Shown piece by piece: positions 4,627-61,917 of a stretch of DNA of 64,000 nucleotides. Within the stretch, counting starts at the first letter, position 1. Every line of letters begins with the position of its first letter. Source of the DNA: Mustelus asterias. Taxonomy: Eukaryota. Location: positions 32,364,001 to 32,428,000 of the forward strand of contig NC_135808.1 in assembly GCF_964213995.1 (NCBI RefSeq). The letters are read 5' to 3'. The notes below the pieces were generated by a model that worked only from the letters and a program-made list of their open reading frames with translations, was not told the origin of the DNA and did no database searches. The position numbers and the translations under genes were made by a program.

Positions 4627-4902
4627 CTTTCCGTCCAAAATATTCCTTTCCAACTTGTAAATATTTCCTTAAGAGCCCGACTAGTTCTTCTTCCAATTGC
4701 CATTTCCAGTGTTTGTTCCAGGATTGATCCAAAATCCATTTCTCTTTAGTTTTCACTGCCATGTGATTGGATGCGACCCATCTCATTCTGTCTGGCTCTA
4801 AACTAATATAGTCCTTTCCATCAAATCCAAACCGCATCGATCTCTTAATGGAGCCGTCTTCAGTGATCTCAACAGACCGAATCCATTGGAAAGTGTGAAT
4901 TC
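4627..4902 (-). CDS. MHC class I gene A alpha2 exon (no cysteines)
   Basis: 276 nt, the canonical alpha2 length. Motifs GIHTFQW, FGFDGKDYISL, TKEKW, KYL; AG/GT bounded. Confidence 0.95.
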
Positions 4903-4956
4903 CTATCAGAGACCAAACAGGGATCAATAATTCAGTCAGATAAAAGCAAAATATGC

Positions 4957-5150
4957 GGATGCGAGAATCTAAAACAAAAACAGATAATGCTGGAAAACCT
5001 CAGGTCTGACAGCATCTGTGGAGATAAAGATGAGAGCCAGGACGACCCATCGTTAGAGCCCACCTTCCTGACTCGAAACGGTGGCTCGAATCTCTTTGCA
5101 CAGATGCTGTCAAACTTGCTGAATTTTTCCATCATTTTGTGTTTTTGTAT
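4957..5150. mobile_element. Degenerate inverted-repeat element related to Penelope termini (intron 2 of gene A)
   Basis: The arms ctgacagcatctgtgga and cacagatgctgtca are reverse complements. Same family as 32565-32930. Confidence 0.55.
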
Positions 5151-5967
5151 CAATAATTCATAGTTAATTAGAAAAGAATTTTTACAATTGATAGAGGACA
5201 ATTTCAGCCTAATTCACTAGTAAAGGAGGTTGAGACGATACAGTGCAATGGTGGTTCTACATCTCACTGGATTTTCCACTAAATTGAAGCCAGCAGAGAT
5301 CAATTTAAGATCTGGATTTACAACACATTTCCACTCAGTTTGTTAGCTTCATGGTCTGATGTGTTATGTGACAATTACTGTTCTTTTTGGAAAGTAATCC
5401 TTCTTTTATTCATTTATGGGATGGGGGCCTTGCTGGCAGATGGTAGAGGTCGTGGATGTGGAAGGTGCTGCCTAAGGAACCTTGGTGAGTTCCTGCAGTG
5501 CATCTTGTAGATGGTCCACACGGGCGCCATATTCATTGTTGGTGGAGTGGGTAGCAATCAAACTGGCTGCTTTGTCCTGGATGTTGTCAAACCTTTTAAG
5601 TGTTGTTGGAGCTGCACCTATCCAGGCAAGCGGAAAGCATTACATCACTTGTAGGTGGTGGACGGACTTTGGCGGTTCGGGAGGCGAGTTACTCTTTTTA
5701 TCAACTTCCCTCAGCTTTTTCCACCATCGCGCGATATCTTTTATTTTTGAGCAGAGCGAGTGGAAAGACTCAGAAAGCGAGGATGTGGAAGGCCCCAGAA
5801 GTGGGAATAAAATGGGAAGTAGAAACCAGGTGACAGGGGTTTGAAGGGAAAGATGGAAGCAGCTGGGGCGAGCAAAACAGCATGAATATCATTCCAATGG
5901 GGAGCACCAACACCACTACCCCATTAACCTGGCCATCAGTGGGAGATTCCAGTTTGATTGGTCATAC

Positions 5968-6222
5968 CGGCTGTCTGGTTCATCCAGTTCCAGATCGGAC
6001 TCATCGTCTCCATCATTACATCGTAACGTTTCTTCCCCAGGGCACTGAGATAATCCCAGTCTTCCACACTGAGATAATCTGTAATGAATTGCTGTCTGGA
6101 AACCATCTGCAGGTTGTCAATGTTGTAATGGGATAACACTACTCCATTGAGCATTGCCACACCTACAAACTCAGGGTGACCGGGAATGCCGGAGATTCCT
6201 GTGTATAGCACAGTGAAGGAAT
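5968..6222 (-). CDS. MHC class I gene A alpha1 exon
   Basis: 255 nt with ttcacag acceptor and G|gtatga donor. Reads DSFTVLYTGISG..PEFVGVAMLNG..RQQF..W..NQT, retaining the N86 glycosylation sequon. Confidence 0.9.
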
Positions 6223-6339
6223 CTGTGAAATAAGCAAAGGAAGGATTGGTTAATAAACAATTAACATTTTCCAAATGGTACTCCTAACTCAGGTGAATCA
6301 GCACCACTCAGTAGCAATCTCCTGTCATCAGCCACTTTG

Positions 6340-6470
6340 GGGGGAATTTTGCCACCCTGCCCACCACGGGAATCGTAGCGGGCGGAGGGGGGTGGCGGAC
6401 CATGCAAAGGTCCGTTGACCTCGGGTAAGATTTTTCGGTTTTGGAGAATGTGGCTATAAAATTCCGCCCT
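6340..6470. mobile_element. MITE-like non-autonomous element (probably Harbinger-derived)
   Basis: TIR-like ends gggggaatttt...aaaattccgccc. Shares the internal aaaggtccgttgacctc with the copy at 7842-7962. Confidence 0.55.
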
Positions 6471-7841
6471 TTATTTTAACACCAGAATCCTTCCTGAAAT
6501 GATAAACTAGATTACTACCGCAGAGAGATACAAGAAGCAGCCTTTTGGATAAGCTCCTGTTTCCAGAAGGTGGAAGAGGACAGGCTGACCAGGAGAGCAT
6601 TGGGAAAGTGAATGTGGTGGTGCCATAAATCCTGGATGAGAATTTGGCAGGAGATGAGGAAGGGGTTGGAAGAAAGAAATTGAACTGAAAATTGGTCACG
6701 GTGATGGAGAGTTTGTAATGGAGGACTTTGGAGGTATAGTCACTGTCGGAAATGTGACAATGAATTTGTACACAGCAAGATCCCATAATGGCAGTGCTAC
6801 AATGACAGCATTCATTCCACACTGCACTGGAGGGCCAGTTTAAATATTGTGCTCAAGTCTCAAATTTGAACCCACAACTTCCTGACTCAGAAGGAAGCAT
6901 GCTACTAATTAACCCTGAACCCTGATACGGCAGGAGGCTGAGAGCTCAGCTCAGGGTCAGACAGGACATCCAAGTGTGAGTCAGCCTGAGACAGTGACCG
7001 GGGAGGAGGATGGAATCGGTGCAAAAGAACAGACTTTGTGCCAGTAGCCAAAGGCATTGGGTGGGATTTTCTGTGGTGAGTTTTGCAGTGGCGGAGGTGG
7101 TCCGCATTGGCCGGATCTTCCAGTCTCACTGCTGTCGACGGCGGCAGTGGTTGCCATTGGCGGGCCAGCAAGAACGGCCAGAACATCCCATCTCTCGACC
7201 TCAGATTTTCCAGGATTTAACTGATGAACATTGACATTCTGTATTGGATGAACTTCAATCAGTTGAGAGACCCTGGAGGAACTGGGAGCAGGCTGGTGAG
7301 ATAGATCTGAATGACGTTGATGTACATGTGGAAAGCTGTGCTTTTGGGCGGTGTCACTGAGGGGCAGCAGGTAGATGGAAAGTAAAAGGGCAGCAAGAAT
7401 GAATCAGTCAATCTTAGAATCATGCAATGCAGAAGAGGCCCTTCGGCCCATCAAGTCTGCACCAAATCCTTCGAGGCATCAGAGATGACAGTATGGGAGT
7501 GTGGGAGCAGGAAGAGAAGCCATTGCAAGTAATTATTTGGCTACAGTCAGATAGATAAAAAGGGAAGCAGATGAGAATAGTCCCATCCAGGCTCGACAAC
7601 ATTGGTGAAGGGTTGGGGGAAGATCGTGTGGTGAATCCTGTCAAAGACGGCAGACAGGTCATGAAGGGAGAGTTTACCTTTTACCACAATCACACAGGAT
7701 GTCATTTTGTGGCTTTGATTAGAATCTATTCAATATTGTGATAAATCCAACGGAAGAAATTCAAACATGGTTCTGGGAAAGGTGCAAATGGATTTGGGAG
7801 GTGACAACAGAGTCAAGGATTGGAGAGGAAAGGGAGGCCAG

Positions 7842-7962
7842 TGGCCGGAATTTCCCTGTCCCACCTGCCATGGGAATGAGAGCAGGCGAGGGACAGAAAG
7901 GTCCGTTGACCTCAGGTGGGATTTTACGGTTTTGGGACGAGTGAGGCCATAAAATCTGGCCC
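7842..7962. mobile_element. MITE-like element, second copy
   Basis: ggccggaattt...aaaatctggccc inverted ends, with internal similarity to 6340-6470. Confidence 0.55.
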
Positions 7963-8534
7963 AGTATGTTGAAAGAACGTAAGGGTGAATTTTCAGGTGG
8001 GGTTGGACAACAGCAGATATGAAATGGAGTGTTCAGTACCGGAGGATACAAAATCATTAACAGTATCAGCTAACATGGTTTACTAGGAATAGGCTCAAGG
8101 GAACAGAATCCAAAGGACATTAAATTGGAATGTTTCTGACAGACAGCCGATTTCACAGTTTACCATCAGATCTGACTTCACCTTGTCACGCACTGCCGGG
8201 CATTGCTCTTATCTGCTAAAACTGCTCACCATTCCAGTTCAAAGGGAATAAGGTTGAGGGAAAAGGACGTGGTCTCATGGACAAGATGAGCTCACAGAGG
8301 ACATGATGGGGGATAGGAGAGAAACTAGAGAAAGATGTGAGTTCAGGGCTAGGATGGAGCAGCTGAGGGAAGGAGGGAGGCATTTCTTCAAGGAGGTTTA
8401 ACCTGATGGGTTAGTGGAAGGCATTGGTACTGGAACAAGCTGGAAAAGTCTCAATCTGAGTGACAAGGAATCCATGAAATCCTTGGACATCAGGTGAAGG
8501 TGGAGGGGAGATAGTGAAAGAGATTTCAGAGAGA

Positions 8535-9117
8535 ATCATCGAATTCCTACAGTGCAGAAGTTTATTTATTTGTTAGTCACAAGTAGGCTTACATTAACAC
8601 TGCAATGAAGTTACTGTGAAAATCCCTGAGTCACCACACTCAGGTACACCGAGGGAGAATTTAGCACAGCCAGTGCACCTAACCTGCACGTCTCTCAGAC
8701 TGTGGGAGGAAACCTGCGCAGACACAGGGAGAATGTGCAGACTCCACACAGACAGTGACCCGAGCTGGGAATCGAACCGCGGGTCCCTGACGCTGTGAAG
8801 CAATGCTAACCACTGTGCAGCACAAGGAGGCCATCGAGTCGGTACCGACAACAATCCCACCCCAGTCCCTATCCCTGCAACCACACGTATTTACCCTGCT
8901 AATCTCCCTGATACTAAGAGGCAATTTAGCACGGCCAATGCACCTAAACAGAACGTCTTTCGGCCTGTGGACAGAAACCGGAGCACCCGGAGAAAACCCA
9001 CGCAGACGCGGGGAAACTTGCAGACTCCACACAGACAGTCACCCAAGGCCGGAATTGAACCCAGGTCCCTGTCGCTGAGAGGCAGCAGTGTTAACCACTG
9101 TGCCACCATACCGCCCC
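8535..9117 (-). mobile_element. Nested tRNA-derived SINEs (HE1-type)
   Basis: Pol III A/B-box head (ggtggcacagtggttaacactgct...gggttcaattcc) and a CR1-like tail. One SINE (~8560-8818) interrupts another. Confidence 0.85.
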
Positions 9118-9579
9118 AAGGTGGTTTGCAGCAGAAGCAGAGGGTTATCTTTGCATTCTGAGGATTGGTTAACAGAACCCCGGTTGTAAATGAGGAACCG
9201 GAGCAAACAGTGGTTACGGTAACTGAGAAAATAGCAGCGACACATGAGATTCTAGACAGTTTGCCTTTTGAATCCATCCTGCCTAATTCTTCAAATCCTG
9301 AAGAGCCTACCATAGAATGGAGGTGCTCTACCAGGGCCCAAAGTCCGAGATCGACTCAATGTTTTCCCTGATGTGTTTGCCTCTGTTAGTTATGTTCTTT
9401 TGTTTCCTCCATAGGTACATTCAGGAGTTGGGTTGGGGTGGGGGCGGGTGGGATGGTAGAGTTGTCCCCAAGTTCCAGAGACAGTCATGGAGACAGAGAG
9501 GAAGACATGGAGCACGAGGGACATGGAGAGTGAGATTAGAGGGGGAGAGCAAGAAGAGGGGGAGGGTGGCGTGGAAAGA

Positions 9580-12095
9580 GTGGGGGAGACGTGGAGAGAG
9601 AGTGAGTGGGGGAGACGTGGAGAGAGAGTGAGTGGGGGAGACGTGGAGAGAGAGTGAGTGGGGGAGACGTGGAGAGAGAGTGAGTGGGGGAGACGTGGAG
9701 AGAGAGTGAGTGGGGGAGACGTGGAGAGAGAGTGAGTGGGGGAGACGTGGAGAGAGAGTGAGTGGGGGAGACGTGGAGAGAGAGTGAGTGGGGGAGACGT
9801 GGAGAGAGAGTGAGTGGGGGAGACGTGGAGAGAGAGTGAGTGGGGGAGACGTGGAGAGAGAGTGAGTGGGGGAGACGTGGAGAGAGAGTGAGTGGGGGAG
9901 ACGTGGAGAGAGAGTGAGTGGGGGAGACGGTGGAGAGAGAGTGAGTGGGGAGATGTGGAGAGAGAGTGAGTGGGGGAGACGTGGAGAGAGAGTGAGTGGG
10001 GGAGACGTGGAGAGAGAGTGAGTGGGGGAGACGTGGAGAGAGAGTGAGTGGGGGAGACGTGGAGAGAGAGTGAGTGGGGGAGACGTGGAGAGAGAGTGAG
10101 TGGGGGAGACGTGGAGAGAGAGTGAGTGGGGGAGACGTGGAGAGAGAGTGAGTGGGGGAGACGTGGAGAGAGAGTGAGTGGGGGAGACGTGGAGAGAGAG
10201 TGAGTGGGGGAGACGTGGAGAGAGAGTGAGTGGGGGAGACGTGGAGAGAGAGTGAGTGGGGGAGACGTGGAGAGAGAGTGAGTGGGGGAGACGTGGAGAG
10301 AGAGTGAGTGGGGGAGACGTGGAGAGAGAGTGAGTGGGGGAGACGTGGAGAGAGAGTGAGTGGGGGAGACGTGGAGAGAGAGCGAGTGGGGGAGACGTGG
10401 AGAGAGAGCGAGTGGGGGAGACGTGGAGAGAGAGCGAGTGGGGAGACGTGGAGAGAGAGGCGAGTGGGGGAGACGTGGAGAGAGAGCGAGTGGGGGAGAC
10501 GTGGAGAGAGAGCGAGTGGGGGAGACGTGGAGAGAGAGCGAGTGGGGGAGACGTGGAGAGAGAGCGAGTGGGGGAGACGTGGAGAGAGAGCGAGTGGGAG
10601 ACGTGGAGAGAGAGCGAGTGGGGGAGACGTGGAGAGAGAGCGAGTGGGGGAGACGTGGAGAGAGAGCGAGTGGGGGAGACGTGGAGAGAGAGCGAGTGGG
10701 GGAGACGTGGAGAGAGAGCGAGTGGGGAGACGTGGAGAGAGAGCGAGTGGGGGAGAAGTGGAGAGAGAGCGAGTGGGGGAGACGTGGAGAGAGAGCGTGG
10801 GGGGAACGTGGAGAGAGAGCGAGTGGGGGAGAACGTGGAGAGAGAGCGAGTGGGGGAGACGTGGAGAGAGAGCGAGTGGGGGAGACGTGGAGAGAGAGCG
10901 AGTGGGGGAGACGTGGAGGAGAGAGTGAGTGGGGGAGACGTGGAGAGAGAGTGAGTGGGGGAGACGTGGAGAGAGTGAGTGGGGGAGACGTGGAGAGAGA
11001 GTGAGTGGGGGAGACGTGGAGAGAGAGTGAGTGGGGGAGACGTGGAGAGAGAGTGAGTGGGGGAGACGTGGAGAGAGAGTGGGGGGGAGACGTGGAGAGA
11101 GAGTGAGTGGGGGGAGACGTGGAGAGAGAGTGAGTGGGGGAGACGTGGAGAGAGAGTGAGTGGGGGAGACGTGGAGAGAGAGTGAGTGGGGAGACGTGGA
11201 GAGAGAGTGAGTGGGGGAGACGTGGAGAGAGGAGTGAGTGGGGGAGACGTGGAGAGAGAGTGAGTGGGGAGACGTGGAGAGAGAGTGAGTGGGGGAGACG
11301 TGGAGAGAGAGTGAGTGGGGGAGACGTGGAGAGAGAGTGAGTGGGGGAGACGTGGAGAGAGAGTGAGTGGGGGAGACGTGGAGAGAGAGTGAGTGGGGGA
11401 GACGTGGAGAGAGAGTGAGTGGGGGAGACGTGGAGAGAGAGTGAGTGGGGGAGACGTGGAGAGAGAGTGAGTGGGGGAGACGTGGAGAGAGAGTGAGTGG
11501 GGGAGACGTGGAGAGAGAGTGAGTGGGGAGACGTGGAGAGAGAGTGAGTGGGGGAGACGTGGAGAGAGAGTGAGTGGGGGAGACGTGGAGAGAGAGTGGG
11601 GGAGACGTGGAGAGAGAGTGGGGGAGACGTGGAGAGAGATGTGGGGAGACTGGAGAGAGAGTGGGGAGAATGGAGAGAGAGTGGGGGAGACATGGAGAGA
11701 GAGTGGGGGAGACATGGAGAGAGAGTGGGGGAGACATGGAGAGAGAGTGGGGGAGACATGGAGAGAGAGGTGGGGAGACATGGAGAGAGAGTGGGGGAGA
11801 CATGGAGAGAGAGTGGGGAGACATGGAGAGAGAGTGGGGGAGACATGGAGAGAGTGGGGAGACATGGAGAGAAGAGTGGGGGAGACATGGAGAGGAGTGG
11901 GGGAGACATGGAGAGAGAGTGGGGAGAACATGGAGACGAGAGTGGGGGAGACATGGAGAGAGAGTGGGGGAGACATGGAGAGAGAGTGGGGGAGACATGG
12001 AGAGAGAGTGGGGGAGACATGGAGAGAGATGGGGAGACATGGAGAGAGTGGGGGAGACATGGAGAGAGAGTGGGGGAGACATGGAGAGAGAGATG
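9580..12095 (+). repeat. 26-bp G/A-rich minisatellite (gggggagacgtggagagagagtgagt), degenerating to ~22-bp units
   Basis: Visible tandem array. It is the source of the spurious S/P/L/H-rich ORFs. Confidence 0.97.
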
Positions 12096-12109
12096 GCGAG
12101 TCATGGAGT

Positions 12110-15100
12110 CTTCGAGTCACAGATGTTTACAGCCTTCGGCTCAACTTGTCTATGCCGTCCCTTTTTTTTAACCACTAAACTAGTCCCACTTGCCGTGTTT
12201 GACTCATATCCCTCTGTACCCATCTTACCCATCTAATTGTTAAAATGCTTTTTAAAAGACAAAATTATACCCGCCTCTACTACCACCTCTGGCAGGTTGT
12301 TCCAGACAATCACCACCCTCTGTGTGAACAAACTGCCCCTCCGGACCCTTTTGTATCTTTCCCCTCTCACCTTAAAACCGATGCCCTCTAGTTTTAGACT
12401 CCCCTACCTTTAGAACATAGAACATTACAGCGCAGTACAGGCCCTTCGGCCCTCGATGTTGCACCGACCAGTGAAACCAATCTAAAGCCCCTCTAATCTA
12501 CACTATTCCAATATCATCCATATGTTTATCCAATAACCATTTGAATGCTCTTAATGTTGACGAGTCCACTACTGCTGCAGCAGGGCATTCCACGCCCTCA
12601 CTACTCTCTGAGTAAAGAACCTACCTCTAACATCTGTCCTATATCTCTCACCCCTCAATTTAAAGCTATGTCCCCTCGTGCTAGCCAACACCATCCGAGA
12701 AAAAGGCTCTCACTATCCACCCCTATCTAATCCTCTGATCATCTTGTATGCCTCTATTAAGTCACCTCTTACCTTCTTCTCTCTACGAAAACAACCTCAA
12801 GCCCCTCAGCCTTTCCTCATACGATTTTCCCACCATACAGGCAACATCCTGGTAAATCTCCTCTGCACCCTTTCCAACACATCCACATCTTTCCTATAAT
12901 ACGGCAACCAGAACTGTACGCAATACTCCAAATGCGGCTACACCAGAGTTTTGTACAGTTGCAGCATGACCTCCTGGCTCCGAAACTCAATCCCTCTACC
13001 AATAAAAGCTAACACACTATACGCCTTCTTAACAACCCTATCAACCTGGGTGCCAACTTTCAGGGATCTATGCACATGGACACCCAGATCCCTCTGTTCA
13101 TCCACACTACCAAGTATCTTACCATTAGCCCAGTACTCTGTATTCCTGTTACTCCTTCCAAAGTGAATCACCTCACACTTTTCTGCATTAAACTCCATTT
13201 GCCACCTCTCAGCCCAGCTCTGCAGCTTATCTATGTCCCTCTGTAACCTGCCACTTCCCTCCGCACTGTCTACAACTCCACCAACTTTAGTGTCATCCGC
13301 AAATTTACTAATCCATCCTTCCACGCCCTCATCCAGGTCATTAATAAAAATGACAAACAGCAGTGGCCCCAAAACAGATCCTTGCAGTACACCACTAGTA
13401 ACTGAACTCCAGGATGAATATTTCCCATCAACCACCACCCTTTGTTTTCTTACAGCTAGCCAATTCCTGATCCAAACCACTAAATCGCCCTCAATCCCAT
13501 GTGTCCGTATTTTCTGCAAAACCTTACCATGGGGAACCTAATCAAACGCTTTACTGAAATCCATATACACCACATCAACCGCTTTATCCTCATCCACCTC
13601 TTTGGTCACCCTCTCAAAGAACTCAATAAGGTTTGTGAGGCACGACCTACCCTTCACAAAACCGTGCTGACTATCCCTAATCAAATTATTCCTTTCTAGG
13701 TGATTATAAATCCTATCTCTGAGAATCCTTTTCAATACTTTGCCCACAACAGAAGTAAGGCTCACCAGTCTATAATTACCAGGGTTGTCCCTACTCCCCT
13801 TCTTGAACAAGGGGACAACATTTGCTATCCTCCAGTCTTCTGGCACTGTTCCTGTAGACAATGACGATACAAAGATCAAAGCCAAAGGCTCTGCAATCTC
13901 ATAGAATAGAATCCCTAAGTACAGAAAGAGGCCATTCGGCCCATCGAGTCTGCACCGACCACAATCCCACCCAGACCCTACCCCCATATCCCTACATATT
14001 TTACCCACTAATCCACGCATCTCAGGACACTAAGGGCAATTTTTTTTTTTTTAGCATGACCAATCAACCTAACCCGCACATCTTTGGACTGTGGGAGGAA
14101 ACCGGAGCACCCGGAGGAAACCCACGCAGACACGAGGAGAATGTGCAAACTCCACACAGACAGTGACCCAAGCCGGGAATCGAACCCAGATTGCTAACCA
14201 CTGTGCTACCGTGCCGCCCCTCCTCTCCTCTCTAGCCTCCCAGAGAATCCTAGGATAAATCCCATCCGGTCCAGGGGACTTATCTATTTTTACCCTTTCC
14301 AGAATTGCTAACACCTCCTCCTTATGAACATCAATCCCATCCAGTCCAACAGCCTGCATCTCAGTACTCCCCTCAACAACATTGTCCCTCTCCAGTGTGA
14401 ATAGTGAATACCGCCGAAAAATATTCATTTAGTGCCTCTCCTATCTCTTCAGACTCCACGCACAACTTCCCACTCCCGTCCTTGACTGGCCCTAATCTTA
14501 CCCTTGTCATTCTTTTACTCCTGACATACCTATAGAAAGCTTTAGGGTTTTCCTTGATCCTACCTGCCAAAGACTTCTCATGTCCCCTCCTGGCTCTTCT
14601 TAACTCTTTCTTTAGGTCCTTCCTGGCTAACTTGTAACTCTCAAGCGCCTTAACTGAGCCTTCACGTCTCATCTTAACATAAGTCGCCTTCTTCCTCTTC
14701 ACAAGAGATTCAACCTCCTTACTAAACCACGGTTCCCTCACACGTCTGCTTCCTCCCTGCCTGGCAGGTACATATTTATCAAGGATGCATCGTAGCTGTT
14801 CCTTGAACAAGTTCCACATTACAATTGTGCCCATCCCCTGCAGTTTCCTTCCCCAACCTATGCCTTTGGGAAAAGATATTGATTATGTCGCTGATCCATG
14901 CCCCTCATTATTTTATAGACCTCTGTAAAATCACCTTGAAGCCTCCTGCGCTCTAGGGAAAAAAGTCCCAGTCTATCCAGCCTCTCCTTATAACTCAAAC
15001 CATCAAGTCCCAGTAGCATCCTAGTAAATCTTTTCTGCACTCTTTCTAGTTTAATAATACCCTTTCTATAACAGGGTGACCAGAACTGTACACAGTATTC

Positions 15101-18168: not shown

Positions 18169-18169
18169 C

Positions 18170-18515: not shown

Positions 18516-18519
18516 CTCT

Positions 18520-20810: not shown

Positions 20811-20820
20811 GGAGCAATAT

Positions 20821-21510: not shown

Positions 21511-21559
21511 GTAGGGAGAAGGAGAAATAGAGGGAGAAATAGAGACAGCGAGAGAGAAC

Positions 21560-34985: not shown

Positions 34986-35137
34986 CTATCTCTAACCTGG
35001 GACACACCCGGTCTATCAGTAACCTGGGACAGTAACCTGAGCAAACATCACTCATTTCAAACTCTCACCAAAAGATTCAAATTCACCCCAGAGAGAGAGA
35101 GAGAGAGTGAGAATGGAAGAGTGAATTCTGTACTTAC

Positions 35138-35189
35138 CGGGAGAGACCCAGGAAAAACACAGGGAGATGGAGAAAAGGATCAGCAACAT
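35138..35189 (-). CDS. MHC class I leader exon (assigned to gene A)
   Basis: Encodes the signal peptide MLLILFSISLCFSWVSP followed by G|gtaagt. Identical to the gene B leader; phase 1 fits alpha1 at 6222. Confidence 0.85.
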
Positions 35190-35255
35190 TCTGGGAATCC
35201 ACTGTCCCAATTCCAATCAGTGACTGGGAATTAAACACTCTGAGGAGGAAACAAC

Positions 35256-42365: not shown

Positions 42366-43055
42366 CTGTGGGGAAAGCTGTGCAATGTGTAATCAAACCC
42401 CACAATCCCCGACACTGTGACAGGAGAGTCTGGGTAAGTGACCCCTGACCTGTGCAGACACTGGGAACAGGAGTTCAACAACCTGATTGTCCTCTTCAGT
42501 ACTCGACATGTCACATAGTTTTTTATACTGAGTCAGAAATATCCTGGTAAAAATCCGTGAACATTCAAAGGTCTTTGAAAACTCTGATCAATCAGAAAGC
42601 GCTGAGTGTCCATGAAATGTGAGTGTATTTCATTCCCAACAATCTGCCCCTCAGTCACTGACTGGGAGCTGTTGTGTACGTCCCACTTGGTGAATCTGCA
42701 GAAGTAAAATAAATGTCAGTTAGAATGGGGAATAATCCATTCTCAGAGAGTGAGAACACAACAAGTGTGAGGGAATGGAGATTGTGTGAGAAATACTCAT
42801 TCTCACACTCCCCTCCATCCTTACACTTTATGGAGATCCTGTCGATCTCTTCCATTCCATCCATATTCAGTAGGTGAGGATGTGAGTGTGTGCGGTGGCT
42901 TTAATGATCAATATTAGACCTGGTCTGAGCTGATCACACAAAGGAAGATCAGACAGGGAACAAGATGTGTTTATACGTGTGTATCTGTGTGTGGGAATTA
43001 AATCAGTTCATTCAACACAGTGTCCTGTACTCCCAGTACTGGAGATTCCCCACAC

Positions 43056-43126
43056 TCACTCTGTCCCCTCAGTTCTACATTCCCCTCTCTCTGCTCCGAT
43101 TATAATTCCAAGATTAGATCTAGTTT
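43056..43126 (-). pseudogene. Gene B remnant TM exon (most of the helix and the splice donor deleted)
   Basis: Reads ETRSNLGIIIGA then intronic ERGECRTEGTE*. About 77 nt of gene A (3415-3491) are missing at a ctg microhomology. Confidence 0.85.
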
Positions 43127-43868: not shown

Positions 43869-44147
43869 CTGACTGATGGAGCTTGGGCTCTGCCAGGCTG
43901 CTGTGTTCAATTTGACAGGAGTATTGATCCTCATCCCCAGCATTTATTTCAATCTCTTTCTGGATCTGATGGGTCCCATCGTGGTTCGGTCGAACCCCCG
44001 AGGATAGTGTCTCAGACATTACCTCTCCATTCCTTAGCCAGGTCACCTCGATGTCTGCAGGATAAAAACCAGTAACCAGGCAGGAGAGAGTGAGCGGCTT
44101 GTACTGACTATTGGGCTCACTTCTGGAGATGAAGACTTCAGGCTGAA
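43869..44147 (-). pseudogene. Gene B alpha3 exon (open frame; terminal W changed to S)
   Basis: 279 nt; C1-set cysteines intact. Confidence 0.9.
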
Positions 44148-44264: not shown

Positions 44265-44540
44265 CTTTCCGTCCAAAATATTCCTTTCCAGCTCACAAAT
44301 ATCTCTTTAAATTCTGAACAAGTATTTCTTCCAAACTCCATTTCCAATATTTGTTCCAGGATTGATCCGAATCCCATTTCTCTTTAGTCTTCACTGCGAA
44401 GTGATTGGACGCGACCCATCTCATTCTGTCTGGCTCTAAACTAATATAGTCCTTTCCATCAAATCCAAACCGCATCCATCTCTTAATGGAGCCGTCTTCA
44501 GTGACCTCAACAGACCGAATCCATTGGAAAGTGTGAATTC
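44265..44540 (-). pseudogene. Gene B alpha2 exon with in-frame stop
   Basis: 276 nt; ...LKRYL*AGKEYFGRK. Confidence 0.9.
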
Positions 44541-50447: not shown

Positions 50448-50735
50448 ATAGAATGGCGACAGTGCAGAAGGAGGCCATTCGGCCCATCGATTCAACACTG
50501 ATTCTCCAAAACAGCACTCCATGTAGGCTCGCTACCTCGCCCTATCCACATAATCCTGCGCATTTAGCATGGCCAATCCACCTAACCTACACATTTGGAC
50601 TGTGGGAGGAAAGCGGAGCACCCAGAGAAAACCCACACAGACACAGGGAGAATGTGCAGACTCCACATAGACAGTCACCCAATTGAACCCAGGCCCCTGG
50701 CGCTGTGAGGCAGCAAAGCTAACCACTGTGCCATC
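50448..50735 (-). mobile_element. HE1-type SINE
   Basis: Same consensus as the other copies. Confidence 0.8.
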
Positions 50736-52265: not shown

Positions 52266-52526
52266 CATGTGTCTGGTTTGGGTTCTTCATTATCAGATTC
52301 AGATTCTCCTTCGCCATATCAGAATGTGAGTTTGCAAAACTGCTGAGCCTTTTCCAGAATTCGGCATTGATAGATTCTGCCATGAACTGCTGCCTGGGGA
52401 TGCACTGTCGAATATTACTGTCATGATAATTAATCTGAACTCCATTGACTGTGGCAACTTTAGTAACCTCGGGAAAATCTGTAACTCCAGAAATTGCTGT
52501 GTATATCGCAGTCATTGAGTTGATCT
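52266..52526 (-). pseudogene. Gene B alpha1 exon (open frame)
   Basis: 261 nt, AG/GT bounded; EINSMTAIYTAISG..FPEV..YHDS..PRQQFM..EFW..NQT. Confidence 0.9.
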
Positions 52527-54140: not shown

Positions 54141-54832
54141 CCGGGACTATCACTAGTTCAGGATAATCCGAGGACCGGTCTGTTGTTTATCATATAACCA
54201 GGAAACGTGATGTGTTGAATTGTGGATTGAAATGAAGAGAAACAGTAATATTTGGGAGGATGAAATGTGAGACCATGGAGGGGGGTGAATAGTCACTGTA
54301 TGAACCGTCTCACTGTCAAACAGGGGGATGGACAATCCAGAGCAGGATCTCCACTGTCCTTCACTGAGCTTTTTAATCACCCCTTTATACAGACTCACTA
54401 GGATGTTGGTGGTCTGAGATAACCTGACCTATTCAACCATGAGGGCATCACAGCTGATCCCGGGGTGGGTGAAACACGGATTATCCTTCTCCTCTCCGCA
54501 GTGTTTCAAAGACTTCAGACCAGGAGTGATGAAAATGTTCTGCTTCTCCCAATCAATGTGAAAATTAAAATTGTCCATTTGAAGCATTTTCCATTTGCTC
54601 CAAGCTTCTCTGCTCTGGGTGTTTGTACATCCTGCTGTCAGGAGAGCTGAACACCAATCCCATCAGAGTCTTCCACACTGTGCTGACTTCAATGGTGTCA
54701 AATATCAGGCTGGCTGTATAACAGCGTCTGAGCAAACATCACCCATTTCAAACTCTCACCAAAAGATTCAAATTCACCCCAGAGAGAGAGAGAGAGAGAG
54801 AGTGAGAATGGAAGAGTGAATTCTGTACTTAC

Positions 54833-54884
54833 CGGGAGAGACCCAGGAAAAACACAGGGAGATGGAGAAAAGGATCAGCAACAT
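54833..54884 (-). pseudogene. Gene B leader exon
   Basis: MLLILFSISLCFSWVSP followed by G|gtaagt. Confidence 0.88.
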
Positions 54885-55064
54885 TCTGGGAATCCACTGT
54901 CCCAATTCCAATCAGTGACTGGGAATTAAACACTTGGAGGAGGAATCCACACTGTTTATTGTGATTGAAAACACAAACAAATGTTGATAAAGACTCCAGT
55001 TTCCTGCCTTCATTGAAATGTGATCAGTTCCCTGAAGTTAAGCCACACAACCAGAGGGTGTATG

Positions 55065-55263
55065 ATTGGTTAGTGTCAGAAAAAGAGCCAATGAAAGGGA
55101 AAGAATTTCTAAAGTTTATTTATTTTTCACAAGTAGGCTTACATTAATACTGCAATGAAGTTACTGTGAAAATCCCCGAGTCGCCACACTCCGGCTCCTG
55201 TTCAGGTACACTGAGGGAGAATTTAGCATGGCCAATTCACCTACCCTGTCACCAGTTATCAGG
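55065..55263 (-). promoter_or_regulatory. Gene B X1X2/Y/CCAAT module split by a SINE fragment (~55104-55243)
   Basis: X1X2 CCTGATAACTGGTGACAGG at 55245-55263, native Y at 55088-55092 and CCAAT at ~55065-55069. The insert matches the SINE tail at 58930-59050. Confidence 0.75.
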
Positions 55264-55899
55264 AAATTGTCCATTTCCGGTTCCGACACTTCCATGTTGA
55301 GCTTCCTCCCCCATCAGTAATGGACATGAAAGGGGCCTGAAAATTATGAAGAAGCCACACTGCAGACAACCATCATTTTAGCTGCTGCAGGCTTTGGGCC
55401 CAGTCAGGCCACCTGCCCCCACAATGGTACAGACTGTTAGACTAATTAAAAACCTTGTTAAACTGCAATTTTTCCAGTCAGCTTCAGGTTTCCCAATTTG
55501 AAATTGAGCAGATGAATGGTCTGGGGTGAGCACCCAGCAATTGGCCAGGGAGGACAGTCCTCCCACAGTCCCTTTCAGCTTGCCTGGCTGGAAGAGCAGC
55601 CACAGGCTGCCCTGTAGATGGACATTCCCCTCCCCTCACCACACTCCCCCTCACCCCCATAATGGTGGCCTGGCTTCTTTCCTGGTTTATTTTGATGTTT
55701 TTCTGAAGTGACTAACATGGACCTTCCTGTTGAAGCAGCTTCTCAGTTACACACCTTGTACTGCAGCTGGGTGTTTGCCGAAAGCTGGAGGAATCCGGAT
55801 TGGCTATTGGGGAGCCTGCCCACTGCTCTTAATTGTGAGGGAAATGGTTTCCAAGCCAATTGCAAATGTTCCCCCACAGAAAATCCTTAACTGTGACCT

Positions 55900-56200
55900 G
55901 TATCTGTGTGTATACACCTCTCTTTGTAGTTGTGAGTATATGTGTATATGAGCGTAGTGTGTGTATTTGTGTGTATATGAGCATGTGTGTGCTTATTTGC
56001 GCACCAGTGTGTGCGCGTGTCTGTGTGTGTACGTATGTATGTATGTGTTGGTCCCTGTGTCTGTGTGTTTGCATGTGTCTGTTTGTGTATGCATGTGTGT
56101 TCATGTGTTATGTTTACATATGTCTGTGTGTCTGTATGTGCGCACTGGTGTACATGTCCATGCTTACATGGGGGTGTATGTGCATCCTCACTCCATAACC
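55900..56200 (+). repeat. Degenerate (TG)-rich simple repeat
   Basis: Low-complexity tgtgtatg run. Confidence 0.85.
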
Positions 56201-56624
56201 CATTCAATTATCAATTAAAATTTAAATGAAAAACTTGCAAGAATTCTACAAACCCTGTAAGACTGTTAAATTATTCCATTTCTTTCCACGTTGCTTTTTT
56301 TTAGTCTCAACAGGATGTGAAAATTCCTGGCTAGGCCAGCATTTATTGCCCATCCCGAGTTGCCCTTCACAGTGCTGTTAGAGTGGGAGTTCCAGGGTTT
56401 GACCCAGTGACGGTGAAGGAACAGTTGATATATTTCCAAGTTAAGGTGGTGTGTGGCTTGGAGCGGAACCTCCAGGCAGTGTGTGTTCCCAAGTATCTGC
56501 TGTCCTTGTCCTTCAAGATGCTAGTGGGTTTAAAAGGTGCTGCCCAAGGAGCCTTGGTGAGTTCCTGCAGTGAAACTTGTAGATGGTTCACACGGCTGCC
56601 ACTGTGCATCAGTGGCGAAGGGCT

Positions 56625-56948
56625 TGAATCATAGAATCCTCCAGTGCAGAAGGAGGCCATTCAGCCCATCGAGTCTGCACCGACCACAATCCCACACAGG
56701 CCCCATCCCCATTAACTCATGCATTTCGCCGTGCTAATCCCCATGACACAAAGGGGTAATTTAGCCTGGCCAGTCCAGCTCACCCGCACATCTTTGGACC
56801 ATGGGAGGAAATCGGAGCACCCGGAGGAAACACACGCTGACACGGGGAGAATGTGCAAACTTCACACAGAGTGACCCAAGACGGGAATCAAACCTGGGTC
56901 CCTGGTGCTGTGAGGCCGCAGTGCTAACACTGTGCCACCATGCCACCC
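56625..56948 (-). mobile_element. HE1-type SINE
   Basis: Full head-to-tail match to the other copies. Confidence 0.8.
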
Positions 56949-57059
56949 CTTGTGGAATGGGTAGCAACGAAGCGGGCTGCTTTATCCTGAACAGTGTCTG
57001 TTGAGTTTCTTGAGTGTTTTTAGAGCTGCACTCATCTAGGCAAGTGGAGAGAATTCCAT

Positions 57060-58470
57060 TCCATAGAAACATACAAAACAGAAGCAGGAGTAGGTTATTC
57101 GACCCTTCGAGACTTTTCACCATTCATTATGATCATGGCTGATCATCAAATTCAATATCATGATCCCCTTTCCCCCATAACCCTTGATCCCAAAAGGCCC
57201 AAGAGCTACTCTAATTTAATCTTGAAGTCAGACAATGTTTTGGCCTCACCTACTTTCTGTGATAGTGAATTCCACACATTCACCACTCTCTGGGTGAAGA
57301 AATTTCTCCTCACCTCAGTTCTTATCCTCAAACTGTGATCCCTACTTCTGGACTCCCCCACCATTTGGAACATTCTTTCTGAATCTACCCTCTCTAATCC
57401 TGTGAGAATTTGATAAGTTTCAATGAGATCCCCTCTCACTTTTCGAAACTCCAATGAATACAATCCTCACACTCCTGACTTGTGCCATGTAGATGGTGGA
57501 CAGGTTTTGGGGAGTCAGGAGGTGGTTACCCACTGCAGGATTCCTAACCTCTGACCTGCTCTTGTAACTACAGTATTTATTGGCTAATCCAGCTTTGTTT
57601 CTGGTCAATGGTAGGCCCCAGGATGTTGCTAATGGGGGATTCAGTCATGGTAATGCCATTGAATGTCAAGGGACGATGGTTAGATTCTCTCTCGTTGGAG
57701 ATGGTTGTTACCTGGCACATGTGTGGCACAAATATTATTTGCCACTTGTTAGTCCAAGCCTGGATATTGTCCAGGTCTGGCTGCATTTGAACATGGACTG
57801 CTTCAATATCTGAGGAGTCATAATGCAGCTGAACATTGTGCAATCATCAGCGAACATCCCCACTTCTGACATTATCATAGAAGGCAGGTCATTGATGAAG
57901 GAGCTGAAGATGGTTGGGACTGGGACACTCCCCTGAGAAACTCCTGCAGTGATGCCCAGAGACTGAGATGATTGACCTCCAATCAGACAACCACCATTTT
58001 TTGTGCTAGTCATGATTCCAACCAGTGGAGTATTTTCCCCCGATACCCATTGTCTCCGGTTTTACTCGGGCTCCTTGGTGCCATACTCGGTCAAATGCGG
58101 CCTTGATGTCAAGGACTATCAGTCTCACCTCACCTCTGGAACTCAGCTCTTTTGTCCATGTTTGAACCAGGACTGTAATGAGGTCAGGAGCTGAGTGACC
58201 CTGGTGAAACCCAAACTGGGTGTCACTGAGCAGGTTATTGCTGAGTAAGTGCCGCTTGATGGCACTGTTGATGACCCCTTCATCACTTTGCTGATGATTG
58301 ACAATAGACTGATTGGGCTGTAATTGGCTGGGTGAAATTTGTCCTGTTTCTCGTGTACAGCACATACCTGGGCAATTTTATACATTGCCCGTGTTCCAGC
58401 TGTACTGGAACAGCTTGGCTCGGGGAGCAGCAAGTTCTGGAGCACAAGTCTTCAACACTATTGCCGGGAT
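57060..58470 (-). mobile_element. LINE fragments (CR1 3' end plus an older LINE RT)
   Basis: RNFFTQRVVNVWN; QFGFHQGHS, LDIKAAFDRVWH, MFADDC. Confidence 0.8.
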
Positions 58471-58909
58471 ATTGTCCTTCCACCCCAACACACTCCCTTT
58501 ATCAGCTTCTCCACACTTCTCATTACTGAGAAGCTGGTGAGCCTTCACCTCCAGCTCACTGGGAAATGTGTTGAAGTTTGATTCACTAAAGTTAGGACAC
58601 GGCTTCCTCTCCTCTGTCTCTCGCACTGACATCTTCTTTTCTGTTAACAAGTCAATCAATGCTGATGGAAAACAGTGAATGATGACATTTGGTCTGAACT
58701 CAGCCAGTTCACATTGGATTGAACCTCAACAACTGCCCATTCCAATCGTCACAAGCTGCTGAGCGATTGAATTCAACCTTTCCTGCGAAATCAGTGAAGA
58801 AGAATTCAGGCAAGTCAAACACTGACAATTATTTATTTATTACAAACCGCAGTTATCAGGATCACAGTGAAACACTGATTAAAGACTTTTCTCCATCAAT
58901 AAATTATAG

Positions 58910-59582
58910 CTTAAAGTTTATTCATTAGGGTCACAAGGAGGCTTACATTAACACTGCAATGAAGTTACTGTGAAAATCCCCCAGTCGCCACACTCCAGCA
59001 TCTGTTCCTTTACACCGAGGGAGAATTTAGCATGGCCAATGCACCTAACCAGCACGTCTTTCGGACTGTGGGAGGAAACCGGAGCACCCGGAGTCATCGA
59101 GTCAGAGAGGTTCACAGCATGGAAACAGGCCCTTCAGCCCAACTTGTCCACGCACCCAGTTTTTACCATTAAGTTAGTTTAGCCCACCGCCCTTTATACC
59201 AATCTTACCCTTGTAACGTCCAAATGCTTTTTAAAAGACAAAATTGTACCTGCCTCTGCTACTTCTGGCAGCTGGTTCCAGCCACTCACCACCCTCTGTG
59301 TGAAAACATTGCTTCTCTCAACCCTTTTGTATCTTTCCCCTCTCACCTTAAACTTTTGCCCTCTAGTTTTAGACTCCCTTACTTTTACGAAAAGGTGTTG
59401 ACTATCTACCTTATCTATGCCCCTCATTATTTTGTAGACCTCGATAAGATCACCCCGAAGCCTCCTACGCTCCAGTGAAAAAAGTCCTAGTCTATCTCGC
59501 CTCTCCTTGTCACTCAAACCATCAAATCCCAGTAAGTCCTATGGTCACACAGTAGTTAGCATTGGTGCCTCACAGCGCCAGG
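58910..59582 (-). mobile_element. SINE interrupted by a CR1 3' fragment (~59095-59535)
   Basis: SINE body and head flank the CR1 RRRLRGDLIEVYK fragment. Confidence 0.75.
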
Positions 59583-60337
59583 CAAAAGTGCATTTTTGAA
59601 CACATCAAACATCTGTATAAGAGCAAAATGTACCGGTGTCTATCAATATAAAATCTGACATTCTGCAGTGTCTCATTACACTCAGAATTACAATATATAT
59701 TAACAATATAAATTTCTTAGCAATCATTCACACTGAGAGATTTGACATGTTTTTCAGCCACTCTCTGTAGCTATGATGGGAGGGTCTGAGTCAGAGGTCT
59801 TTCCCCATGGAGTGTCTCCAGTAGCTGCCCCAAGCTGTGTTGTGTCCCTCACCAGTATTCCTGGACCTTGCAATGCGACAATCTGAAATCCTCAGTCATG
59901 GAGAACCCTTTGCCCTGGAAGAGTTGAGAGTTTCAGGCTGATTTTCACTGAGTTGATGGTCCTCCAGCAGGAGACGGTGTTTATCTCAGTGTGTGCTCCT
60001 GGGAACAGCCTGTACAGCGCAGAGTCCCTGTATAAAGGAGCTGCCGGGATGGACACTCTGTGACTGTGTGGGAATTCAGCAGATCAACTTTCACTTTCCT
60101 TCATCTCACCCAACTTATAAAGTGAAGTGGAAAACTGTCCAGCACCAGAAAGGTGTTTCCAACATCCTGATTGTCTTCTCCATTACCGGACGTATCACAG
60201 AGTCTTTTATACTGAGTCCAAAAAGTCTTGATCAAAATCCGCGAACATTTAAAGACATTTAAAACTCTGAGCAATCAGAAAGTGAGAAAAGTGCACAAAA
60301 TGTGAATGTATTTCATTCCCAACAATCTGTCCCTCAG

Positions 60338-60378
60338 TCACTGACTGGGAGCTGTTGTGTACGTCCCACTTGGTGAAT
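60338..60378 (-). CDS. MHC class I gene C cytoplasmic exon
   Basis: DSPSGTYTTAPSQ*, with the same acceptor as gene A. Confidence 0.75.
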
Positions 60379-60784
60379 CTGCAGAAGTAAAATAAATGTC
60401 AGTTAGAATGGGGAATAATCCATTCTCAGAGAGTGAGAACACAACAAGTGTGAGGGAATGGAGATTGTGTGAGAAATACTCATTCTCACACTCCCCTCCA
60501 TCCTTACACTTTATGGAGATCCTGTAGATCTCTTCCATTCCATCCATATTCAGTAGGTGAGGATGTGAGTGTGTACGGTGGCTTTAATGATCAATATTAC
60601 ACCTGGTCTGGGCTGATCACACAAAGGAAGATCAGACAGGGAACAAGATGTGTTTATACGTGTGTATCTGTGTGTGGGAATTAAATCAGTTCATTCAACA
60701 CAGTGTCCTGTACTCCCAGTACTGGAGATTCCCCACACTCACTCTGTCCCCTCAGTTCTACATTCCCCTCTCTCTGATTCTTAC

Positions 60785-60895
60785 CTCTCCATTGGCTTTT
60801 CCAGATGATTATTCCGAATATAACAGCCAGTGCTGGGATCACTGATCCAATTATAATTCCAAGATGGGAGAGTCCCCCACTGTTTCCCGGGATTT
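60785..60895 (-). CDS. MHC class I gene C TM exon
   Basis: EIPGNSGGLSHLGIIIGSVIPALAVIFGIIIWKSQWR; AG/GT bounded; 9 nt shorter than in gene A. Confidence 0.9.
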
Positions 60896-61245
60896 CTGAA
60901 ACACATTTGAATAATATGAGCATTGTCTCTCTGTTCCCGGATCCATTCCCTGTTCTGTGTTCATCGGGGACAATTTGAACTGAAGCCGCCCCAGTCCAAA
61001 TGGGATTGGTTGAAGCTTTGCTTTGACACTGGCCCCATGGTGGATAAGGGAGTGTCGATGGACCTGCTCCAGATGGACTTCCAGAAGGTCATTGATCACG
61101 TTCCACACAAGAGATTCTTGACAATAATCAGAGTGTTTGGAATTGAAGGGAATCTTTGCCATGGGGTGAAAATTGATTCTCAGGGGGGTGACAGGGAATG
61201 GGGAGAATGGGAATGTGCTCGCAGATATCCAGTACAGTTCCTTAC

Positions 61246-61524
61246 CCCACTGATGGAGCTTGGGCTCTGCCAGGCTGCTGTGTTCAATTCGACAGGAGTA
61301 TTGATCCTCATCCCCAGTATTTATTTCAATCTCTTTCTGGATCTGATGGGTCCCATCGTGGTTCGGTCGAATCCCCGAGGATAGTGTCTCAGACATTACC
61401 TCTCCATTCCTTAGCCAGTTCACCTCGATGTCTACAGGATAAAAGCCAGTAACCAGGCAGGAGAGAGTGAGCGACTTGTACTGACTATTGGGTTCACTTC
61501 TGGAGATGAAGACTTCAGGCTGAA
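61246..61524 (-). CDS. MHC class I gene C alpha3 exon
   Basis: 279 nt; C1-set motifs. Confidence 0.95.
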
Positions 61525-61641
61525 CTGTAATGGGAAAGGGTGAAAACACAAACAATAAACCCACACTGAATGGAATGGGAGAACGGTTTGATAGATCAGT
61601 GAAGTTAGATCAGAACATGGGCTCAAAACTGAAATCAATAC

Positions 61642-61917
61642 CTTTCCGTCCAAAATATTCTTCTCCAGCTTCCAAATATTTATTTAAATGTTGAACAAAT
61701 ACTTCCTGCAGATAATTTTCCCAGTAATTATTCCAGGATTGATCAGAGTTCCATTTCTCTTTAGTCTTCACTGCGAAGTTATTGTACGCGACCCATCTCA
61801 TTCTGTCTGGCTCTAAACTAATATAGTCCTTTCCATCAAATCCATACCGCATCCGTCTCTTAATGGAGCCGTCTTCAGTGACCTCAACAGACCGAATCCA
61901 TTGAAGAACGTGAATTC
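61642..61917 (-). CDS. MHC class I gene C alpha2 exon (no cysteines)
   Basis: 276 nt; GIHVLQW..YGFDGKDYI..TKEKW..YLQEVFVQHLNKYL. Confidence 0.95.

Follow-up and report, generated by a model that had tools for sequence, protein, structure and literature searches.

The disulfide bond between C101 and C164 of the alpha2 domain is regarded as a hallmark of MHC class I folding, and nearly all class I proteins keep it. A stretch of 64,000 nucleotides from the shark Mustelus asterias (NC_135808.1, positions 32,364,001 to 32,428,000; hereafter the window) carries class I genes in which a first-pass annotation found neither cysteine. We therefore asked whether the bond is truly absent, whether its absence marks a lineage or mere decay, and what sort of class I molecule might do without it.

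Class I genes in the window lack both alpha2 cysteines

The window contains genes A, B and C and an inverted relic (Table 1). The alpha2 exons of the three genes are 276 nt each, have AG/GT borders and contain no Cys codon; the motifs reported for them (WIRSVEI, WIRSVEV twice, EEELV, EEILV and QEVFV) were all in place. A misplaced register as the source of the missing cysteines was rejected, as HMMER alignment to solved class I chains placed 101 and 164 correctly: in gene C, "wirsvev" fell on "WMFGCDI" and "qevfvqhl" on "EETCVEWL". Exons and register together confirm the annotated Val at 101 and Leu or Phe at 164. In alpha3, all three genes retain both cysteines. The inverted fragment had been counted as a further copy; it does have Val at 101 (WILIVEI), but it ends before 164 and lies outside the span 4627..61917 that encloses the three alpha2 exons.

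Table 1. Exons of the class I genes and the relic in the window
Gene	Feature	Position	Strand	Remarks
A	leader exon (coding part)	35138..35189	-	nearest upstream leader; equals residues 1-17 of P0003
A	alpha1 exon	5968..6222	-	no Cys; runs X21 and X1 show splicing to alpha2
A	alpha2 exon	4627..4902	-	V101 / L164
A	alpha3 exon	4231..4509	-	Cys pair intact
A	connecting peptide / transmembrane exon	3423..3542	-	
A	cytoplasmic exon (GTYTTA) with stop	2976..3016	-	
Relic	inverted 5' fragment of alpha2 exon	1123..1205	+	V101; ends short of 164
B	leader exon (coding part)	54833..54884	-	
B	alpha1 exon	52266..52526	-	frame open
B	alpha2 exon	44265..44540	-	V101 / L164; in-frame TGA: pseudogene
B	alpha3 exon	43869..44147	-	
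B	truncated transmembrane exon, its 3' part and donor lost by deletion, plus cytoplasmic exon	42655..43126	-	
C	alpha1 exon	62864..63124	-	two Cys, near HLA positions 36 and 45
C	alpha2 exon	61642..61917	-	V101 / F164
C	alpha3 exon	61246..61524	-	
C	transmembrane exon	60785..60895	-	
C	cytoplasmic exon with stop	60338..60378	-	

Genes A and C are intact members of the family, and B and the inverted fragment are dead ones. The encoded chain matched Pfam MHC_I (3e-25) and C1-set (1.7e-15), with platform, alpha3, transmembrane segment and tail on separate exons. Gene A has an intact frame and is identical to a RefSeq Mustelus asterias protein (XP_078073794.1). The spliced transcript that the annotation had called for was found at the alpha1-alpha2 junction: an exon-only contig from a public run (none of the runs listed as matching gene A is recorded as RNA) covers alpha1 without a difference and joins it to alpha2. 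The leader of gene A, which implies a first intron of 29 kb, was assigned by position because that of gene B is identical in sequence. A single leader exon serving many genes was rejected, with 21 leader matches on the chromosome. The leader of gene C lies outside the window, at L031:8941-8891.

The loss marks one ancient shark family

Absence of the alpha2 cysteines marked a single clade of 59 rows (support 100/100) with several supported subclades; the alpha1 of gene A belongs to an old orthologous sublineage (100/99). Of 84 matches, the 83 that bore a species name came from 12 shark species and, in these searches, none came from a ray or chimaera; the ray and chimaera rows named in the profile search keep both cysteines. 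C101 is missing family-wide, in four galeomorph orders as well as in a hexanchiform shark, and four further shark orders have orthologues of gene A that are 68-73% identical to it across alpha1 and alpha2. The M. asterias genome itself gave 18 alpha2 matches at 61-100%. These distributions indicate an ancient family of multicopy class Ib genes in sharks, whose loss of the bond predates the split of hexanchiforms and galeomorphs. The loss thus spans the whole family, and the suggestion of a new sublineage is not supported.

Outside the family the picture is different. Among 159 alpha2 domains covered at 101 and 164, five were family rows and were set aside; both cysteines are present in 148 of the remaining 154, one is absent in six and both are absent in none, so their joint loss is not a matter of chance.

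Within the family (92 alpha2 domains), none of the 88 domains that cover position 101 has Cys there; 82 have Val, three Ala, two Ile and one Leu. The M. asterias copies use the codons GTT, GTC and GTG for Val101, which shows the residue being held while its codon drifts. Position 164 carries 11 kinds of residue (L30, F22, Y11, C7, S7, G6, H2, D2, V1, W1, T1) and ranks sixth in variability among the 91 columns of alpha2; the surrounding helix, 158-174, is the most variable part of alpha2, with strong differences from copy to copy. The proposed paired replacement by hydrophobic residues therefore does not hold, since only 101 is fixed and seven domains have C164. A compensating disulfide across the lineage was rejected: alpha1 and alpha2 are free of Cys in gene A and in 18 of the 59 rows, and a 36/45 Cys pair occurs in one of 59 rows and in three of 16 alpha1 exons of this genome.

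A class I platform with about half of its peptide anchors

The anchors for the peptide N-terminus are gone (Y7 in 0/59 rows, Y159 in 12/59, W167 in 0/59) while those for the C-terminus are largely kept (W147 in 59/59, K146 in 53/59, T143 in 44/59). All 59 rows share W133, W147, W156 and M114, and 58 of them have W152; R84 survives in only eight, and 35 have Arg in place of Tyr at 99. With a mean of 5.0 of nine canonical anchors, the family lacks the nine anchors plus alpha2 disulfide of classical class Ia (UAA). The beta2m-contact residues Q96, D119, G120 and D122 are each present in all 59 rows, which bears out the annotation for Q96 and D122. An AlphaFold model of moderate confidence (pLDDT 69, pTM 0.58) keeps the class I platform with a continuous alpha2 helix; its best structural match was UGA (PDB 9CH4; Z 20.7, rmsd 4.3, 252 aligned), with HFE tied at Z 20.5. 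The structure search returned solved structures of UAA, UFA and UGA and none of the Cys-less family, nor any close one for P0146 and P0129. By a Kyte-Doolittle score over 41 groove positions, which differs from the method of the UEA paper, groove hydrophobicity was 0.14 for the family, -0.05 for UAA, 0.07 for a second expanded family and 0.51 for UGA-like rows. Being slightly above UAA, near the second family and below the UGA-like rows, the family value argues only faintly for a lipid-type ligand.

On these sequence features we lean towards a beta2m-bound non-classical class I molecule with a conserved, Trp-rich C-terminal half of the groove, a variable N-terminal half and non-canonical ligands. 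The chains would bind beta2m and be displayed on the cell. C101V would undo the link that ties the alpha2 helix to the floor of the groove, hydrophobic packing around V101 would substitute for it, and the orphaned position 164 would then be free to change in several sublineages. This order of events is proposed because C164 turns up at three separate points of the tree, and from a codon test: the residue at 164 is one step from a Cys codon in 35 of 59 rows, a weak guide to the order of loss since column 158 scores equally (37/59). The outcome may be a groove of which one half, rich in Trp, is fixed and the other, with the A/B pockets, is specific to each paralog. It is an even question whether each paralog binds a different ligand that lacks a free peptide N-terminus (candidates are a lipopeptide, a small aromatic metabolite or an overhanging peptide) and presents this ligand to innate-like T cells.

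Another possibility, which we hold to be real though doubtful, is that the molecules carry no ligand, like MICA/B, T10/T22 and HFE, and that gamma-delta, NAR-TCR or NK-type receptors recognise the fold itself. The variable alpha2 helix would then be the receptor-contact surface and bulky W97, M114, W152 and W156 would fill and could close the groove; columns 158, 162, 166 and 170, which are among the most variable, should by HLA geometry be receptor-facing, and the tie with HFE fits as well. A common fold is no proof of function, however, T143, K146 and W147 are kept in most rows, and groove-facing columns of alpha1 and alpha2 also differ among paralogs.

The groove might also hold ordinary peptides mainly by their C-terminus, the Cys loss being a tolerated frozen accident of no functional bearing. 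We consider this quite unlikely. Pocket F anchors are mostly retained, with a mean of five of the nine canonical anchors, and alpha1 diversity resembles that of a peptide-binding family, but the state of Y7, W167, R84 and position 99 speaks against ordinary peptides. In HLA, to judge from the title of Hirv et al. 2006 as cited in PMC6542842, breaking the bond lowers expression, which speaks against an accident of no consequence.

The family is very probably UEA

UEA reportedly occurs in sharks and was not detected in rays or chimaeras, is said not to conserve the nine invariant anchors, and is said to have the most hydrophobic groove among chondrichthyan class I. It is reported to comprise three sublineages. 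UCA is a dogfish (Squaliformes) lineage distantly related to UEA. Like UEA (Almeida et al. 2021, J Immunol 207:824; also described in PMC10751288 and PMC12562908), the present family is multicopy, sits in an Ib cluster adjoining a single-copy Ib gene, is restricted to sharks among the named matches, has an incomplete set of the nine peptide anchors, lost mainly at the N-terminal end, and comprises several old sublineages.

The Ib cluster of UEA is bounded by brd2/b2m and hsd17b8/rxrb, and the family lies within such bounds. The white shark orthologue, LOC121291255, is at 80.1 Mb, between BRD2/B2M (78.2-78.3) and HSD17B8/RXRB (84.1-84.2); the M. asterias cluster, at 32.3-33.6 Mb, is between a BET match (33.87) and a weak RXR match (26.06, E 9e-4). 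By synteny, copy number and range, the family is very probably the described UEA lineage, in keeping with the suggestion that it belongs to a known non-classical shark lineage. The assignment rests on these three properties; the family was set alongside descriptions of UEA, and no difference between the two was shown. A published supplement labels the shark Ib cluster only "MHC-Ib", with no match for "UEA".

Other named lineages fit less well. UDA, UFA and UGA are single or low copy and also occur in rays, unlike a family with 18 alpha2 matches in one genome. UBA is UAA-derived and forms a separate cluster beyond rxrb, which does not describe the Cys-less family. By synteny UBA is instead the second expanded family, at 21.6-24.7 Mb past the RXR match, which groups with Triakis class I (UAA) and keeps both cysteines.

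That the genes form an unnamed lineage distinct from UEA in the same cluster is very unlikely. The comparison included neither labelled UEA nor dogfish UCA sequences (no Squalus sequence was among the named matches), which leaves room for such a lineage; against it, UEA is the only multicopy lineage that PMC10751288 names for this Ib cluster, UBA and UEA are the only expanded ones named in PMC12562908, and the other of the two expanded families in this genome fits UBA.

Placement in a lineage already known to lack the cysteines would remove the novelty of the finding. Such a placement is probable. It is likely that the loss in UEA is already in print; the open-access literature searched, including PMC10751288, PMC12562908, PMC4364491, PMC6523485, PMC8713811, PMC6769792, PMC2196254 and PMC6542842, contained no statement of a shark class I lineage without these cysteines.

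Selection argues against decay

The dN/dS ratio was 0.51 in alpha1, 0.36 in alpha2 92-157 and 0.95 (interval 0.37-1.83) in alpha2 158-174; alpha3, with few changes, gave 0.71 (0.38-1.26). Alpha2 outside 158-174 is under purifying selection. At 158-174 dS is raised (0.50 vs 0.25) and, given the wide interval, old exchange of segments explains this region as well as selection does. Monophyly, the ratios of 0.36-0.51 and splicing of gene A uphold the claim of a lineage-level change and not decay.

That all copies are decaying pseudogenes, which absence of expression with dN/dS near 1 would have indicated, is refuted at the transcript and selection level and hardly deserves credence: some copies in this genome are dead (a stop in three of 17 full alpha2 exons, two alpha3 exons interrupted), but alpha2 and alpha3 frames are open in 12 of the 17, dN/dS is below 1 in alpha1 and alpha2, gene A is spliced, and its orthologues persist in four other orders.

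A bolder combination of these results strikes us as rather improbable. The loss would be unpublished and the family the only known large, ancient, expressed class I family to lack the bond on an otherwise intact platform; the loss of C101 would have made the helix 158-174 an exchangeable cassette that, recombined with divergent alpha1 exons on a homogenised alpha2 floor and alpha3, supplies a germline repertoire of differently shaped pockets to hold non-peptide ligands of microbes. The same system may include the class II-like isoforms that frequently skip alpha2, as well as unpaired cysteines of the groove (45, 71, 164).

Comparison with known systems

The lineage is very probably already familiar to specialists, and A, B and C are new members of it. 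Gene A is a good structural target, being intact, spliced and represented by a widely conserved orthologue in a family for which no structure was found. RefSeq names the gene models of shark class Ib indiscriminately, and the absent C101 is a one-residue marker by which to sort them.

Shark UAA (Triakis scyllium alleles P0150/P0250-P0261; PDB 6LUP) and the second expanded family share with the Cys-less family the class I fold, exon layout, N86 glycan site and Q96/D122. In contrast, C101-C164 is present in the Triakis representative and in the 12 loci of the second family that were read, and Triakis alleles have eight of the nine anchors. UGA (PDB 9CH4) and UFA (PDB 8GM8) are likewise non-classical, being CD1-like, single- or low-copy shark class Ib, but their identity is only 26% and 20%, respectively; the UGA-like rows group in a separate clade, with both cysteines present.

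Mouse T10/T22 have a rearranged alpha2 disulfide. Teleost S and P class I, as described in PMC4364491, have altered Cys patterns with extra alpha1 cysteines (C36/C67, C48); they keep the alpha2 pair and add cysteines, whereas the shark family loses them. In HLA, a broken alpha2 disulfide is found in A*32:11Q, a rare allele of low expression according to PMC6542842. In the shark family, by contrast, the loss is fixed across a whole ancient family, and a family that has done without the bond since before the hexanchiform/galeomorph split is a natural experiment on the purpose of that bond.

Three class I genes without the alpha2 cysteine pair

The window contains three MHC class I genes (A, B and C), all on the minus strand, and one inverted piece of an alpha2 exon. 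In alignment to solved class I chains, the C101 site is Val in all three genes and the C164 site is Leu, Leu and Phe, respectively. Exon reading and alignment thus bear out a Cys-less alpha2 domain in A, B and C. The first-pass annotation had extended the loss of both cysteines to every copy, which holds for the three genes, while the fragment is informative at position 101 only. In translation, every exon of gene A corresponds to part of P0003 (RefSeq XP_078073794.1, source label Mustelus asterias). Gene C is open and complete, with its leader 8.9 kb outside the window; gene B carries a TGA within alpha2, and most of its transmembrane exon is gone.

Class I features and associated repeats by window position
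Feature	Position	Strand	Remarks
Gene A alpha2 exon	4902-4627	-	276 nt, AG/GT borders, 0 Cys codons
Gene B alpha2 exon	44540-44265	-	276 nt, AG/GT borders, 0 Cys codons
Gene C alpha2 exon	61917-61642	-	276 nt, AG/GT borders, 0 Cys codons
Alpha2 fragment	1123-1205	+	reaches position 101 only
Gene C alpha1 exon	62864-63124		Cys at ~36 and ~45
Cytoplasmic exon Tyr motif	2976-3016, 42655-42695, 60338-60378		GTYTTA in A, B, C
Gene A first intron	6223-35137		
Inverted duplicate	1233-1516, 58603-58886		284 bp, 97% identity
Leader-exon surroundings	35115-35225, 54810-54920		111 bp

The cytoplasmic exons share one tyrosine motif, which resembles YxxA, a motif of classical class I tails. The two alpha1 cysteines of gene C recur in its paralogs L036 and L037; they lie on adjacent strands and could form a new bond beneath pocket B. 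Across the 59 family members in our alpha1-alpha2 tree, Cys45 occurs in 21 and Cys71 in 8.

The first intron of gene A would span 29 kb. It is packed with CR1/L2-like reverse transcriptase fragments; there is also one gypsy-like fragment near 25.4 kb, and a tandem array of 26-bp units starts at about 9.4 kb. One arm of the inverted duplicate (1233-1516) directly follows the alpha2 fragment. The leader-exon surroundings are 99-100% identical across 13 copies, one of which (G000:C8:32285542-32285652) lies upstream of the Cys-retaining single-copy neighbor P0129; P0133 has the same signal peptide as these copies, and the leader is therefore common to two deep lineages.

Loss of C101 across the family

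An alpha2 search identified 84 family proteins among 99 candidates. The 83 named ones represent five orders and 12 species of sharks, Heptranchias among them; no ray or chimaera is included. A further search for the family gave 82 of 154 proteins with the same species range. We then surveyed 93 distinct alpha2 domains within P0001-P0104. The one with both cysteines is a neighboring gene fused into model P0004. In the other 92, position 101 is V82, A3, I2 and L1 (4 not covered) and position 164 is L30, F22, Y11, C7, S7, G6, H2, D2, V1, W1 and T1 (2 uncovered).

As a control we used the best 150 profile-search matches in 1.84 billion representatives and five further family proteins. Both positions were covered in 159 domains, five of them family rows; of the 154 non-family domains, 148 had both cysteines, six lacked one and none lacked both. 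Of the 77 alpha2 matches in the own genome, 18 show 61-100% identity and 59 show 28-41%; residues were read in 30. The 17 family exons covering position 101 have V16/I1, and 12 of 12 non-family exons retain both cysteines.

In a tree built from 77 selected rows (179 columns of alpha1-alpha2, without fragments, fusions and most bony-vertebrate matches), the 59 C101-less rows form a single clade with 100/100 support. Gene A groups with sequences from Heptranchias, Heterodontus, Chiloscyllium and Cetorhinus in a subclade of five species (100/99). Inner branching is unreliable because of paralog recombination. This monophyly across 12 species supports the proposed lineage-level change and shows C101 loss to be a genuine and old trait of the lineage. 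The idea of a paired hydrophobic replacement is not supported, as position 164 takes 11 residues, Cys, Ser, His and Asp included. We infer that C101V would have been the first step, with Cys164 lost later, since 101 is fixed yet Cys164 persists at three scattered points of the tree and in one copy of the own genome. Because a Phe-to-Cys reversion at 164 needs only a single base change, the order is unproven.

The family is very probably UEA

According to PMC10751288, brd2/b2m and hsd17b8/rxrb bound a cluster that holds multicopy UEA together with the single-copy genes UDA and UFA; UBA, also multicopy, has a cluster of its own with c4 and rxrb on its flanks. PMC12562908 names only UBA and UEA as expanded lineages. 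In white shark, LOC121291255 (a model with a gene A orthologue) lies at 80.1 Mb, flanked by BRD2/B2M at 78.2-78.3 Mb and HSD17B8/RXRB at 84.1-84.2 Mb. The own-genome family lies mainly at 32.3-33.6 Mb, flanked by a BET-domain match at 33.87 Mb, presumably brd2, and a weak RXR-type match at 26.06 Mb. A single Cys-retaining gene at 32.28 Mb adjoins the cluster and is taken as UDA by position only. The second expanded family, at 21.6-24.7 Mb, groups with Triakis class I alleles.

UEA is reportedly a shark-only lineage that lacks the nine peptide anchors and has three sublineages, and the species range and anchor loss of our family agree with the first two traits. UEA is also reported to have the most hydrophobic groove of chondrichthyan class I; on the Kyte-Doolittle scale over 41 groove positions, our family scored 0.14, against -0.05 for UAA, 0.07 for the second family and 0.51 for UGA-like rows. 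From synteny, copy number, range and anchors we are highly confident that the family is UEA. The suggested membership in a described shark lineage is thus upheld and the window genes are very probably of an already known kind; a new sublineage is not indicated, as C101 is absent from all 88 family domains that cover the position. No statement that a shark class I lineage lacks these cysteines was found in the open literature searched, the UEA description itself lying outside that scope. The description probably shows the loss because the same domains were analysed there, and it is unlikely that the loss together with the variable helix cassette is unpublished.

Outlying family copies occur on the same chromosome at 3.66, 33.55-33.62 and 40.14 Mb, as far as 29 Mb away from the bulk of the family; those at 3.66 and 40.14 Mb have open alpha1-alpha3 exons. 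The second, Cys-retaining family has roughly 50 alpha2 matches. Many of them come as identical sets of three or four, which suggests that blocks were recently duplicated or that the assembly is redundant.

Selection and splicing argue against decay

Selection was assessed on 12 of 17 own-genome alpha2 exons, those with alpha2 and alpha3 both open. The other five were dropped: three carried a stop in alpha2, and in one of these alpha3 was broken as well; a fourth had an interrupted alpha3, and the alpha3 of the fifth was missed by the search pattern. Pooled Nei-Gojobori dN/dS, from non-independent pairs and with intervals from codon resampling only, was 0.50 for alpha2, 0.36 for residues 92-157, 0.95 (0.37-1.83) for residues 158-174 and 0.71 for alpha3 (itself on a dS of 0.05). 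Alpha1 gave 0.51 with a dS of 0.71 (14 of 16 own-genome exons). Ratios below 1 in alpha1 and alpha2, and the 12 of 17 open copies, agree with the earlier view that these genes are not decaying.

Splicing of gene A was also found. In sequencing run X21, whose kind is not recorded, a single contig coincides with the alpha1 exon without a mismatch and has depth 24. Flanking intron contigs have depth 2-4, and alpha1 and alpha2 are joined in one contig at GT-AG borders. Run X1, from another organism, has the same joint with a short side of 81 letters. Alpha2-alpha3 and alpha3-transmembrane joints are present too, with paralog origin possible at the 85% setting.

RefSeq isoforms of the family that skip the entire alpha2 exon occur in three species (P0110 and P0115, Chiloscyllium punctatum; P0112, Hemiscyllium ocellatum; P0113, Carcharodon carcharias). 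They are alpha1-alpha3-transmembrane chains named class II-like and resemble HLA-G2.

A fixed and a variable half of the groove

Mean identity within the family rises from 50% in alpha1 to 69% in alpha2 and 88% in alpha3. Between genes A and C, 74% of the alpha1 residues differ but only 4% of the alpha3 bases, which argues that the 3' part has been homogenised while the alpha1 lineages are old. Eight of the nine most variable alpha2 columns are 158, 159, 162, 163, 164, 166, 167 and 170, in the helix stretch that the class I disulfide normally ties to the groove floor. L004 and L012 (P0012, P0028) have very different alpha1 exons and share the 158-182 helix segment, their sequences pointing to segment exchange.

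In HLA numbering, the groove half away from this stretch is fixed, with W133, W147, W156 and M114 present in 59/59 family rows, W152 in 58/59 and W97 in 46/59. The pocket A anchors are depleted (Y7 0/59, W167 0/59, Y159 12/59, Y59 24/59). An AlphaFold model keeps the class I platform and a continuous alpha2 helix (pLDDT ~77-90 across alpha2), and its top structural matches are class I chains, UGA (Z 20.7) and HFE (Z 20.5).

The most likely product would be a beta2m-bound surface molecule in which one half of the groove is constant and Trp-rich and the other is open and paralog-specific; ligands presented by it would have no free peptide N-terminus. The main rival is a ligand-free role like that of MIC or T22.
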